Below are positions 1 through 5,752 of a stretch of 64,000 nt of DNA, in pieces (position 1 is the stretch's first letter; each line of letters starts with the position of its first letter). The translations under genes and the position numbers were made by a program. Origin of the DNA: Candidatus Woesebacteria bacterium GW2011_GWC1_42_9. GTDB lineage: Bacteria > Patescibacteriota > Microgenomatia > UBA8517. The DNA is taken from contig LCET01000004.1 in NCBI GenBank assembly GCA_000995185.1, positions 2,630 to 66,629 on the forward strand, given 5' to 3'. A model generated the notes under the pieces. It was not told where the DNA came from. It worked only from the letters and a program-made list of their open reading frames with translations, and ran no database searches.

Positions 1-210
1 GGTACCTTTCTACACCTTAATATTTACTATTAAATAGAAAAACTTGGGGTGTAAATAGTCCCGCAAAGCGGGACTGGGTTCTCCCATTTGGAAATCGTCG
101 GATCAAAGCTTTGTGGCAGCTCCCCGGCGCTTATCGCAGCCTTACGCGTCCTTCATCAGCAACTTATGCCTAGGCATCCACTGTTTGCATTAAGTAGACT
201 TTCGGCATTT
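1..210 (-). rRNA. rrl: 23S rRNA, 5' end (partial; continues beyond window start)
   Basis: Reverse complement reads ...GTGGATGCCTAGGCATAAGTTGCTGATGAAGGACGCGTAAGGCTGCGATAAGCGCCGGGGAGCTGCC...AAGCTTTGATCC...AATGGGAGAACCC, matching the universally conserved 5' domain of 23S rRNA. Confidence 0.75.
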
Positions 211-240
211 CTCTTCAGATGTCAAAGTACAATCCGAGAG

Positions 241-315
241 TGGACCCGAGGGGATTCGAACCCCTGACCCCTACATTGCAAATGTAGTGCTCTAAGCCAA
301 CTGAGCTACGGGCCC
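241..315 (-). tRNA. tRNA-Ala (anticodon UGC)
   Basis: RC gives GGGCCCGTAGCTCAGTTGGCTTAGAGCACTACATTTGCAATGTAGGGGTCAGGGGTTCGAATCCCCTCGGGTCCA; cloverleaf with 7-nt loop TTTGCAA and the G3:U70 Ala identity pair; no CCA encoded. Confidence 0.85.
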
Positions 316-502
316 CTGAGCACAGGAATACTAAATGAAGTTAATTAACGAGGCTAATTTCCACAACTGCCCCCTCGTTTATATGTTTGTGGCATATTCA
401 TAAAGTTTCCGAACTCAAAGTTAGTGAAGATTATACTATTATATTTGGGTCTAGTCAAACAACGAGACAGAATGCCCCTCAAACTGATATACTACGAGGC
501 GC

Positions 503-576
503 GGGCTTGTAGCTCAGTTGGCTAGAGCGCCAAACTGATAATTTGGAGGTCCCAGGTTCGAGTCCTGGCAAGCCCA
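503..576 (+). tRNA. tRNA-Ile (anticodon GAU)
   Basis: GGGCTTGTAGCTCAGTTGGCTAGAGCGCCAAACTGATAATTTGGAGGTCCCAGGTTCGAGTCCTGGCAAGCCCA; anticodon loop CTGATAA; canonical T-loop TTCGAGT; opposite strand to the flanking rRNA genes. Confidence 0.85.
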
Positions 577-578
577 CT
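559..578 (+). repeat. Direct repeat copy 0 (T-arm/acceptor 3' end of tRNA-Ile itself): CGAGTCCTGGCAAGCCCACT
   Basis: Same 20-21 nt string recurs at 628-647 and (1-nt deletion) 928-946. Confidence 0.8.
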
Positions 579-627
579 CGCTCTGCTCACAGACTTTCCA
601 GTTCTCGATATCGCTCCTTTGGATCGT

Positions 628-647
628 CGAGTCCTGGCAAGCCCACT
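628..647 (+). repeat. Direct repeat copy 1 of tRNA-Ile 3' end (att-like)
   Basis: tCGAGTCCTGGCAAGCCCACT identical over 21 nt to 558-578. Confidence 0.8.
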
Positions 648-684
648 TGATTTTCAAATCTCAGTTGGATAAATTGATAGTACA

Positions 685-915
685 ATGTCGCTCACCCAAA
701 AAGACTTTGATGAAATCGAACAAGTAGTTGAAAAGGTTGTTAATAAAAAAACAAGCAATCTCCCCACAAAAGATGAGTTTTTTGGTTCTATGGACAAACT
801 AGTGACAGAAATTAAAGCGTCTCGTGAAGAGCAGACCATATTGTCTCACAGAGTCTCTGATCATGAAGATCGGATTGAAAAGATCGAGAATAAGCTTCAG
901 ATACCCTCAAATTAA
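685..915 (+). CDS. Hypothetical 76-aa charged/coiled-coil protein, lying between tRNA-end repeat copies 1 and 2
   Basis: ORF MSLTQKDFDEIEQVVEKVV...; heptad-like K/E-rich sequence; no recognisable family. Confidence 0.4.
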   Translation: MSLTQKDFDEIEQVVEKVVNKKTSNLPTKDEFFGSMDKLVTEIKASREEQTILSHRVSDHEDRIEKIENKLQIPSN

Positions 916-3361: not shown

Positions 3362-3370
3362 ACCAAAAAT

Positions 3371-3380
3371 AAGGTATAAT
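3371..3380 (+). promoter_or_regulatory. A-run + GGTATAATTTTCCC promoter motif upstream of 3428 gene
   Basis: aaaaataaGGTATAATTTtccc; near-identical to the motif at 6741-6754 (minus) etc; AGGGAG RBS at 3415-3421. Confidence 0.5.
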
Positions 3381-3427
3381 TTTCCCGCACCATAAATCGA
3401 TAAACGAATCCTTATAGGGAGTGTGTA

Positions 3428-3859
3428 ATGAAAATAGCGACGGCTATTCAACTTTTCTTGTCTATCGCCCTAGTTGTAATCTTTTGTCTTGCTTATCTGC
3501 CAGTAACGGGATCCATAGCAGATGAAACGGCACCGATCGAGGAGCCTGCAGAAATGCAAACAACGCAGGAAGTGGCCGTAGAAAAACTGCAAGATCTCGG
3601 CGAATTTCACGCCTTATGGAGCATTAATGACGGCACGGGAGTGCGTTTAGTTGTCACCGGCGGCCCTGAGAGCACTGCAGTCGGACTGCGCTTTGCTGGC
3701 ATCCAATCTGTGAACGTCGTTGAGGACACAGCCGACATGGCTGATCACACAATGTGGCTTATCATTGTCGCCCTGCGATTACAACCAGACAGGGTGTGTC
3801 AAGTGATTATCGGCAACAGTCCCGCGAGCACCGCCTCGTTTGAATGCCCAATCGGCTAA
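3428..3859 (+). CDS. Hypothetical small protein with N-terminal signal peptide/TM helix
   Basis: MKIATAIQLFLSIALVVIFCLAYLPVTGS...; RBS present; followed by terminator. Confidence 0.55.
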   Translation: MKIATAIQLFLSIALVVIFCLAYLPVTGSIADETAPIEEPAEMQTTQEVAVEKLQDLGEFHALWSINDGTGVRLVVTGGPESTAVGLRFAGIQSVNVVEDTADMADHTMWLIIVALRLQPDRVCQVIIGNSPASTASFECPIG

Positions 3860-3879
3860 ATAATAAACAATGTGATACG

Positions 3880-3911
3880 AGCACTTGGAAGCGATTTCAA
3901 GTGCTTTTTTT
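3880..3911 (+). terminator. Rho-independent terminator (AGCACTTG-loop-CAAGTGCT + T7)
   Basis: 8-bp stem followed by TTTTTTT. Confidence 0.65.
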
Positions 3912-4028
3912 GTGGGGGAAAATCCCTCAACACCTAAATATATGACTAGAAGCGGATCCGGTTTAGTAACCCCAAACCGCGAACTTAAAGGGGGGTGTTT
4001 TTGTCCGTCATTCGGACCTTACTCCTTA

Positions 4029-5519
4029 GAAAGGAGGTGATCCATCCCCACCTTCCAGTAGGGATACCTTGTTACGACTTAATCCTCATCGCTAGTTTCA
4101 CCGTCTCCCGATACAATCGGGATTCGGGTGCCTCCAACTTTGCTGACTTGACGGGCGGTGTGTACAAGACCTGAGAACGTATTCACCGCGGCTTAGCTGA
4201 TCCGCGATTACTACCAATTCCGCGTTCATGAGGGCGAGTTGCAGCCCTCAATCCCCACTGAGAAGCCGTTTGATGGGATTAGCTCCCGCTTGCGCGTTGG
4301 CAACCCATTGTCGGCTCCATTGTAGCATGTGTGTTGCCCTAGACATAAGGGCCATGCTGACTTAACGTCGTCCCCACTTCCTCCCCGAAAATCGGGATAG
4401 TCCTGAATGAATAATTCAACATTCAGCAAGGGTTGCGCTCGTTACCCCACTTAAGGGAACACCCCACGGCACGAGCTGACGATAGCCATGCAGCACCTGT
4501 CTAACCTCTCCATCAAAGATAGATTCCAGACTATTTCTAGCCGGCATTAAAAATTAGATGTCAAGTCTAGGTAAGGTTCTTCGGTTCGTCTCGAATTGAA
4601 CCACATGCTCCACTGGTTGTGCAGATCCCCGTCAATTCCTTTGAGTTTTAGCCTTGCGGCCGTACTCCCCAGGCGGCTCGCTTCACGCGTTAGCTTACGC
4701 CCCATCCTCTTTCAAAAGAGAACAGAGCTGGCGAGCATCGTTTACGGCTAGGACTACAGGGGTCTCTAATCCCTTTCGCTACCCTAGCTTTCGTCCCTGA
4801 GCGTCAGAGTATTCTTAGCTACCTGCCTTCGCCCTCGGAGTTCCTATCGATATCAACGGATTTCACCCCTACACCGACAGTTCCGGTAGCCCCAAAAACT
4901 CTCTATCCTGGCAGTATTGTTCCCCTTCCTCCGGTTAAGCCGGAGTATTTAAAGAACAACTTGCCAAGTCGCCTACGGACTCTTTACGCCCAATAAATCC
5001 GGGCAATGCTTGCACCCTACGTATCACCGCAGCTGCTGGCACGTAGTTAGCGGGTGCTTATTCTCTCCGATGTCTCCATCGGAGCAAAAGAAGTTTACAA
5101 CCCTAAGGCCTTCATCCTTCACGCGGCGTCGCGGCGTCAGACTTTCGTCCATTGCGCACGATTCCCGGTTGCTGCCTCCCGTAGGAGTGTGGCCCGTATC
5201 TCAGTGCCACTCTGGGGGTACACGCTCTCACGTCCCCTACCCGTCGAAGCCTTGGTAGGCCATTACCCTACCAACAAGCTGATGGGAAGTAGGCTCATCT
5301 TCTAGCGAGCAGTTACGCCCTTTGGTCCATAGACCACATGCGGTATTAATTCCCGTTTCCGGGAGCTATTCCCCACTAAAAGGTAGATTCCTACTTTGTA
5401 CTCAGCCGTTCGCAACTTTCCCTCACAATTTCTTGCGAAATGGTGAGGGACCGTTTTACTTGCATGCCTAATGCACGCCGCCAGCATTTACCCTGGGCCA
5501 GGATCAAACCCTCAAATTT
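4029..5519 (-). rRNA. rrs: 16S rRNA (complete)
   Basis: RC 5' end AATTTGAGGGTTTGATCCTGGCCCAGG..., 3' end ...AAGTCGTAACAAGGTATCCCTACTGGAAGGTGGGGATGGATCACCTCCTTTCT; internal ORFs (5010-5305 etc.) are spurious. Confidence 0.9.
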
Positions 5520-5752
5520 GTGACGAGTTATAATTGCCCTGACTGCGTGACTTTGCGCGAGCCAGGCTCGCCATTCACGCTTCCAGTCATATATTTAAGG
5601 TGTCAAAGAACATTTTAATCGAGGCAAATGAAAAACCGCCCTAAGGCGGTCACATATAAACGGGCAAGCCCAGTTAATTAATTACCTCATTAGTAGAAGG
5701 AATCATATCATGATAATTAGAAACAATCAAATTGGCTTTAATAACAATTAAA

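Follow-up and report, generated by a model that had tools for sequence, protein, structure and literature searches.

At one end of a 64,000-nt stretch of Candidatus Woesebacteria bacterium GW2011_GWC1_42_9 (a tiny groundwater bacterium of the Patescibacteria; contig LCET01000004.1, positions 2,630 to 66,629; the whole stretch is called the window here), the ribosomal RNA (rRNA) genes are divided into two units, 16S on one side and tRNA-Ala-23S-5S on the other, and a gene for a P-loop ATPase is located between them on the opposite strand. This split rRNA locus with its conserved ATPase gene is very probably typical of the lineage and vertically inherited, and is not the trace of a recent insertion. 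The genes match their family models, the arrangement is conserved in relatives, separate assemblies reproduce it, and the hallmarks of mobile elements are missing. An earlier sequence-only reading of the window had seen in it an rRNA operon broken by mobile-element cargo with a gene for a conjugative coupling protein.

The rRNA genes follow the canonical order 16S, 23S and 5S on one strand. Full-length 23S (5713-8943) and 5S (5546-5662) genes are found on the source contig beyond the window, in locus L085 (loci of other assemblies are given by L numbers). A canonical spacer would be short (1500 bp or less) and without protein-coding genes, but here 3825 bp separate 16S and 23S and contain an inverted tRNA-Ile(GAU), the conserved 746-aa ATPase gene and two small open reading frames (ORFs). 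The spacer tRNAs also depart from the canonical state, in which both are on the rRNA strand: tRNA-Ala(UGC) is, but tRNA-Ile(GAU) is opposite, and the two divergent genes are 187 nt apart. Brewer et al. (bioRxiv 10.1101/705046) call rRNA genes "unlinked" when the closest 16S-23S distance is above 1500 bp, and by this definition the window is unlinked together with eight relatives with distances of 3.5-11.2 kb. The sequence-only reading described this layout well: Rfam and ARAGORN place 16S, the 23S 5' end and tRNA-Ala on the minus strand, with its coordinates off by a few bases at most, ARAGORN confirms the inverted tRNA-Ile, and the rRNA genes are indeed split by protein-coding DNA of the opposite strand (Table 1).

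Relatives were collected through the ATPase protein, which gave 80 loci from one-genome-per-species contigs and nine loci from the contigs of the closest homologues (61-71% identical). Only three of the 80 (L001, L005, L007) had rRNA within the flank, and with the window, L081-L084 and L088-L092 they make up the clade of 13 genomes considered below. The ATPase orthologue (+) adjoins tRNA-Ile(GAU) in 13/13 of these genomes according to rRNA and tRNA searches. The 16S gene (-) lies 0.2-6.3 kb past the ATPase stop codon in all 12 with sufficient flank, and tRNA-Ala(UGC)(-)-23S(-) stands on the other side of the ATPase in ten, followed by 5S where the flank reaches that far. One member, L082, is a closed chromosome of 901,682 bp (CP055307.1) with the same layout. 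Because the 16S genes of the relatives are only 76.8-85.8% identical to that of the window, the layout predates very deep splits. The recent rearrangement or insertion proposed before is thus not borne out, since the same layout with an orthologous ATPase exists in 12/12 relatives examined, one of them closed. It had also been proposed that relatives with unlinked rRNA genes and no coupling-protein gene would speak against an insertion; the relatives are unlinked, but the ATPase gene is present in them, and this half agreement points to an ancient, fixed arrangement.

In a neighbour-joining tree of the ATPase protein alone, the ten core orthologues beside rRNA genes are grouped as one clade at 100% bootstrap. 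Variation within the clade is concentrated at the Ala|Ile and ATPase|16S junctions, where extra, genome-specific DNA accounts for 23S-16S distances between 3.5 and 11.2 kb. The cargo at these junctions includes a PKD/SH3 protein in L081, a GIY-YIG ORF in L082 and other ORFs without family matches; in L090 (3324-6230) three tandem nucleotidyltransferase/HepT (HepT/MNT) toxin-antitoxin pairs stand upstream of tRNA-Ile, where others have tRNA-Ala-23S. The outer neighbourhood is partly shared: homologues of sortase, RadA and S1 protein follow 5S in the window's contig, L084 and L088, those of RadA and S1 in L082 and L089, and that of S1 in L005, while some clade genomes have a VTT-domain gene and tRNA-Glu past 16S.

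From the distribution of the family, the ATPase gene predates its place beside rRNA, and the two were probably joined once or a few times, deep in the lineage. The outgroup contig L033 (2009-7102) lacks rRNA and carries an ATPase orthologue between sortase and RadA homologues, which are genes flanking 5S in the clade. This hints at a possible move of the rRNA halves to the ATPase neighbourhood and not the reverse, but it is one contig and we do not rely on it.

The join between the two halves is not an assembly artefact. Window positions 1-6500 are identical to LCFQ01000002.1 (L085) of Candidatus Woesebacteria bacterium GW2011_GWB1_43_14, which we counted as the window's own genome; separate support comes from the ENA assemblies L086 and L087, which reproduce this segment with 99.5% and 99.97% identity and with polymorphisms peculiar to each. 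rRNA genes are generally known as classic misassembly sites in short-read metagenomes, and the sequence-only reading had named an assembly chimera as a possibility; a 16S contig and a 23S contig would then have been fused through unrelated DNA. Since the separate assemblies and the closed genome CP055307.1 agree on the layout, and the order is repeated in 11 further assemblies from different projects, such a chimera has a negligible probability and was rejected.

Several features of the rRNA genes themselves were also observed. One ENA population variant, L086, has an insertion or replacement of ~44 nt inside 16S (~13544-13599, window ~4806-4817) relative to the window. The 16S gene is interrupted in several relatives (L001, L081, L083, L091, L092), and LAGLIDADG ORFs are found within or beside the 16S and 23S genes of relatives. 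The 23S gene of L085 has 3231 nt against 2925 nt of the model, and ENA calls an 89-aa GIY-YIG ORF inside it (L086 8032-8301).

Table 1. Coordinates of the features at the split rRNA locus, in window positions.
Feature	Position	Strand	Evidence and remarks
23S rRNA, 5' end	1-204	-	Rfam RF02541, 100 bits, model 1-185; 3' side cut by window edge
23S leader, predicted 5' strand of 23S processing helix	205-239	-	pairs with sequence just past the 23S 3' end
tRNA-Ala(UGC)	240-315	-	ARAGORN; Rfam tRNA 70.1 bits; canonical spacer place and orientation, directly upstream of 23S
Candidate tRNA-Ala-23S-5S promoter, TTGACT-17-TATAAT (11/12)	430-458	-	consensus scan; 114 nt upstream of tRNA-Ala
Candidate divergent tRNA-Ile promoter, GAGACA-18-TATACT with upstream TG	464-493	+	consensus scan; 10 nt before tRNA-Ile; weaker
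tRNA-Ile(GAU)	503-577	+	ARAGORN; Rfam 75.8 bits; inverted relative to the rRNA genes
Exact 21-nt copy of tRNA-Ile 3' end (TCGAGTCCTGGCAAGCCCACT)	627-647	+	repeat family D1
76-aa coiled-coil ORF	685-915	+	exactly between second and third tRNA-Ile 3'-end copies
Degenerate third copy of tRNA-Ile 3' end (15/21)	926-946	+	repeat family D1
Terminator-like hairpin and T run	1073-1100	+	consensus scan; would close the tRNA-Ile/small-ORF unit before the ATPase promoter
TATAAT -10 box	1108-1113	+	sequence; 7 nt upstream of ATG 1121
746-aa P-loop ATPase gene	1121-3361	+	Pfam TrwB_AAD_bind, DUF87 and TraG-D_C above gathering scores
143-aa ORF, hydrophobic N-terminus	3428-3859	+	strain-specific; promoter-like site 3352-3380
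Terminator-like hairpin and T run	3879-3906	+	consensus scan; would end the plus-strand genes before the 16S trailer
16S trailer, predicted 3' strand of leader-trailer helix	3921-4027	-	probable RNase III substrate
16S rRNA	4030-5519	-	Rfam RF00177, 1349.8 bits, model 1-1533; full length, without insertion
16S leader, predicted 5' strand of leader-trailer helix	5525-5612	-	
Candidate 16S promoter, TTGATT-17-TATGAT with upstream TG	5702-5730	-	consensus scan; 182 nt upstream of 16S

The sequence-only reading took the ATPase for the conjugative coupling protein of an integrative and conjugative element (ICE) or plasmid whose cargo had recently entered a normal rRNA operon. Three observations agree with such an insertion: the ATPase has a fold of the TrwB/VirD4 class, the tRNA-Ile 3' end is repeated downstream of the tRNA in the manner of attachment sites, and the junctions of relatives hold variable cargo including toxin-antitoxin pairs and a GIY-YIG ORF. 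It is nevertheless largely refuted by synteny, because the gene occupies the same site in 13/13 clade genomes, down to 77% 16S identity, with no presence/absence variation. The tRNA 3'-end repeats (558-578, 627-647 and 926-946) bound only ~370 bp and leave the ATPase gene outside; they were absent from eight relatives examined, and as attachment sites of an ATPase-bearing element they were rejected.

No integrase or recombinase gene was found in 1-9000, the nearest tyrosine recombinase being at 33302-34165, and no relaxase, VirB4 or mating-pair-formation gene had a Pfam match among the neighbours within ~10 kb or the 37 window ORFs scanned, a scan from which small, divergent parts of a type IV secretion system may have escaped. 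Comparison with plasmid and phage databases, which had been suggested as a check, gave only distant matches to the ATPase: 24-37% identity for the best plasmid proteins (PLSDB) and at most 30% for phage proteins, from Bacillus jumbo phages and similar (INPHARED). A plasmid, ICE or phage origin was rejected on this basis. The protein does match phrog_5156 strongly (1e-76), which is a family of unknown function. The GC content (44-45%) is unremarkable in the window range of 37-49%. With the missing membrane anchor and the sub-cut-off scores described below, recent mobile cargo is a highly improbable explanation, and the vertically inherited, lineage-typical locus is preferred.

The start codon of the ATPase gene is ATG 1121, and not TTG 1103 or the deposited start at 1262, and the N-terminus is conserved from residue 4. 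The protein is 100% identical to UV74_C0002G0054. TrwB_AAD_bind (PF10412) scored 42.1 bits (cut-off 20.5) and TraG-D_C (PF12696) 32.7 bits (cut-off 22). The Walker A motif is GKTGTGKS and the Walker B motif YVDEFQNF, and both GKTGTGKS and VDEFQNF are invariant. The protein thus has a Walker A/B nucleotide-binding domain and a TrwB-type all-alpha domain, the combination expected of coupling proteins. Its N-terminal ~270 residues correspond to PF26449 (DUF8128) in the precomputed Pfam annotation of most homologues. The AlphaFold model has a mean predicted local distance difference test score of 73.7, with high values over the N-terminal domain and the ATPase core. In a fold search, residues ~320-690 matched TrwB, DotL, Cag-beta, VirB4 and HerA with probability 1.0, a target template modelling score of ~0.5 and 14-16% identity, while a sequence search of PDB matched only the P-loop of TrwB.

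Other expected properties of a conjugative coupling protein are missing. The highest Kyte-Doolittle mean over 19 residues is 1.66, at residues 48-66 which are modelled as beta strands, so that no membrane anchor appeared in this simple hydropathy check (not a dedicated predictor). Against the curated coupling-protein models of NCBIfam (TraD, VirD4-like, CedD and others) the ATPase scored 14-48 bits with cut-offs of 250-650; the best score was 48.5 bits against a cut-off of 250, and 10/10 matches were far below the cut-offs. The ATPase is therefore not a demonstrated conjugative coupling protein, as it falls short in membrane anchor, curated models and genomic context. As to its biochemical role, we infer an NTPase probably of the TrwB/VirD4 class, of the hexameric translocase type and not tied to conjugation. 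The type IV coupling proteins (T4CPs) TrwB of R388, VirD4, DotL and Cag-beta share with it the P-loop nucleotide-binding and all-alpha domains. They have an N-terminal transmembrane anchor, however, whereas it has a soluble DUF8128-type domain of ~270 aa instead; its identity to TrwB is 14-16%, it is below every NCBIfam cut-off, and it is not beside a relaxase or VirB4 gene.

More than 7,500 homologues of the ATPase were found, the top 120 with 61-71% identity, and the family extends over many groups of the Candidate Phyla Radiation (CPR), with members in no fewer than 597 species genomes; Saccharibacteria are among its carriers. Loci L001-L037, mostly from Microgenomates (Shapiro-, Levy-, Gottesman-, Roizman-, Collier- and Amesbacteria), match the window ATPase at 556-771 bits versus 214-434 bits for a second paralogue in the window, and their genes are clear orthologues of the former. 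This second full-length paralogue (34322-36637, minus strand) shares 35% identity with the first. At its 3' end it adjoins tRNA-Ile(UAU) (34171-34244, minus strand) and a tyrosine recombinase gene (33302-34165, plus strand), so a tRNA-Ile gene is next to each of the two paralogues. That type IV secretion genes cluster around the second one was considered and rejected, since Pfam gave no relevant match in its ten neighbouring ORFs.

In Patescibacteria, 5,713 VirD4-like homologues have been reported in 2,918 genomes; 148 were near virB4, relaxases were rare and exaptation was suspected (PMC12102498). The ATPase resembles these orphan T4CP homologues: it is a chromosomal VirD4 homologue, widespread in the phylum, with no virB4 or relaxase gene found nearby, and they too are chromosomal, mostly away from virB4 and without relaxase. 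Their ~2 copies per genome are matched by the two paralogues in the window. A position at the rRNA locus is not part of the published description, by which the likeness is drawn.

We infer the transcription units, the leaderless start and the RNase III processing at this locus from consensus matches and predicted duplexes. The sequence-only reading had concluded that the insert would force separate transcription of 16S and 23S. Separate transcription is the most likely consequence of the layout, with a promoter-like site upstream of each unit and a separate leader-trailer helix for each, though the sites are consensus matches only. Upstream of tRNA-Ala, similar 11/12 sites are present in L082 and L091, and 10/10 relatives tested have promoter-like sites (10-11/12) 109-252 nt upstream of 16S. 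The 16S leader and trailer would form a duplex of -72.4 kcal/mol (shuffles, -46.8 +/- 3.9), whose core is the inverted repeat I2 (3935-3954 with 5578-5597); the 23S leader-trailer duplex has -32.6 kcal/mol (shuffles, -16.3 +/- 3.3), and helices comparable to it exist in L082 and L005. In both cases 0/30 shuffles were as good. CPR genomes retain RNase III (PMC12641178).

The terminator and promoter ascribed earlier to the ATPase gene correspond to consensus sites: a hairpin with T run on either side of the gene and a TATAAT box before it. A TATAAT or TACAAT box is located 6 nt before the ATPase ATG in seven of the relatives L081-L084 and L088-L092, and 10-13 nt before it in two. The start has no Shine-Dalgarno site and no room for a leader. 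Because the spacing of the -10 box would put the transcription start at or beside the start codon, this suggests a leaderless ATPase mRNA across the clade.

Taken together, the locus may work as follows. 16S would stand alone as a unit with a promoter and a leader-trailer processing helix of its own, and tRNA-Ala(UGC)-23S-5S a second unit whose promoter would lie in the divergent spacer between tRNA-Ala and tRNA-Ile. On the opposite strand between them, the conserved chromosomal gene for a presumably soluble DUF8128 and TrwB/VirD4-like ATPase would be transcribed from its -10 box as a leaderless mRNA. The ATPase gene and the rRNA genes were probably united in the ancestor of this deep clade, with at least two flips of tRNA-Ile(GAU) and variable cargo at Ala|Ile and ATPase|16S coming later.

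Alternatively, one precursor could run from the 16S promoter, antisense to the ATPase gene, through to tRNA-Ala-23S-5S as a single operon, with the ATPase under antisense or collision control. This is compatible with the common strand and canonical order of the rRNA genes and tRNA-Ala, with the operon orientation that tRNA-Ile also keeps in some relatives, and with the minus strand between 4030 and 460, where no canonical intrinsic terminator was seen except weak matches inside an ORF. We consider it unlikely, because tRNA-Ala is preceded at 114 nt by an 11/12 consensus promoter, to which L082 and L091 have similar sites, in relatives the spacer extends to 6-11 kb with several genes on either strand, and the convergent plus-strand genes end at a terminator-like hairpin of their own. 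Two separate units in an old, inherited locus remain the preferred explanation.

Some points weigh against this explanation. The phylogeny is a neighbour-joining tree of a single protein, and some of its nodes are weak. L002 falls together with L005 and L001 at 100% bootstrap yet has no rRNA within 10 kb; because it nests in the rRNA-adjacent group, the adjacency can be lost. The relatives were sampled via the ATPase gene, so clade members without the gene at this site would be missed. The tRNA 3'-end repeats show some recombination or integration at tRNA-Ile in this strain. As to transcription, the promoters and terminators are consensus matches from a scan that gave 17 promoter-like sites against 8.3 +/- 3.3 in shuffled sequences; a strict scan finds the tRNA-Ala promoter in only 3/7 genomes having tRNA-Ile on the ATPase strand, with none in L005, L081 and L084. 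The consensus scan also found no canonical minus-strand intrinsic terminator after 16S, and read-through antisense to the ATPase gene is possible.

The orientation of tRNA-Ile(GAU) varies within the clade. It is on the ATPase strand in 8/13 genomes (window, L005, L081-L084, L090, L091) and in the canonical orientation of the rRNA strand in 5/13 (L001, L007, L088, L089, L092). On the ATPase tree the two states are mixed: L005 (plus) and L001 (minus) are sisters at 100% bootstrap, L084 (plus) joins minus genomes in 74% of the replicates, and the core plus genomes are monophyletic in only 1%. On this tree, at least two independent flips of tRNA-Ile are needed in the clade.

Part of the DNA next to tRNA-Ile is missing from the relatives. 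Between tRNA-Ile and the ATPase gene there are 543 nt in the window versus 21-104 nt in relatives with the same tRNA orientation, and ~520 bp (578-1100), with the tRNA 3'-end repeats and the 76-aa ORF, are specific to the strain lineage. The 76-aa ORF has ~22 homologues with 41-73% identity, two of which are amid housekeeping-type genes with no mobile-element genes called nearby. One of these two, in CPR contig L093 (5001-5420), is also close to a tRNA (Arg), with ~100 nt between it and the 3' end of that gene. The ORF may be a tiny tRNA-associated cassette, or its position may be a coincidence.

The small signal-peptide protein noted earlier downstream of the ATPase gene is the 143-aa ORF, whose N-terminus is strongly hydrophobic. 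Its sole database match is a fragment of itself, it is likewise strain-specific, and relatives have unrelated genes at its position. As a partner of the ATPase it was rejected, being an ORFan with other genes in its place in relatives.

Elsewhere in the window, the tRNA-Ile with anticodon UAU (34171-34244, minus strand) has two tRNA-Met(CAU) genes nearby (32739-32886). Most bacteria decode AUA by a lysidine-modified CAU tRNA, and a UAU tRNA-Ile is uncommon. The window further contains an ATP-dependent DNA ligase (20694-22406), a Fic-domain protein (22598-23659), a RecF/SMC-like ATPase (24681-25754) and a long cluster of plus-strand genes for sugar-nucleotide dehydrogenases, epimerases and glycosyltransferases at ~49.5-63 kb (49526-63749).

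Separation of the rRNA genes is reported to be frequent in CPR/Patescibacteria, as it is in other lineages with small genomes or symbiotic life, and to be conserved within clades (bioRxiv 10.1101/705046). The unlinked pairs of Brewer et al. are on average ~410 kb apart, whereas in the window clade 3.5-11 kb separate the halves, which share one strand and the canonical order and have one specific conserved protein gene between them. The closest described architecture is that of Lyme-group Borrelia, with a single 16S gene and a ~4.6 kb spacer to 23S-5S that contains trnA, trnI, mag and a cof-type hydrolase gene (PMC2688082, PMC4370689). As in the window, protein genes are in the spacer and tRNA-Ile is opposite to the rRNAs. 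But tRNA-Ala remains next to 16S in Borrelia, with the inverted tRNA-Ile placed before 23S, whereas in the window tRNA-Ala stays with 23S; the spacer genes are unrelated, and Borrelia has a tandem duplication of 23S-5S. The two arrangements arose independently. Our literature search, which was incomplete and is no proof of novelty, found neither a paper on a protein-coding gene within an rRNA spacer of CPR bacteria nor one on this arrangement in Woesebacteria. The locus is a specific new example of the documented unlinked-rRNA arrangement, an ordinary trait of its lineage with minor curiosities: repeated tRNA-Ile inversions, a probable leaderless promoter and tRNA-end repeats around a tiny ORF.

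The ATPase gene is convergent to 16S and head-to-head with the candidate tRNA-Ala-23S promoter, and this is kept across a lineage whose depth is that of a candidate phylum. That its position is selected, tying its expression to rRNA transcription and hence to growth state, has a low probability in our estimate. Promoter competition, read-through antisense RNA and transcription collisions would be the possible routes of such coupling, and the recurrent flips of tRNA-Ile(GAU) near the promoter would in that case either tune the coupling or simply follow from it.

For practice, it means that a 16S/23S pair split by a "conjugation" ATPase should not be flagged as chimera, ICE or horizontal transfer in Woesebacteria-like CPR genomes, and that pipelines expecting a short 16S-23S spacer, such as full-operon amplicon sequencing and binning checks, fail here. 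Among the orphan coupling-protein-like ATPases of Patescibacteria, one subfamily gains a conserved genomic landmark in this locus. It is also a clean, deep example of an rRNA operon that is split while its halves are still neighbours, and it could help to study the onset of unlinking.

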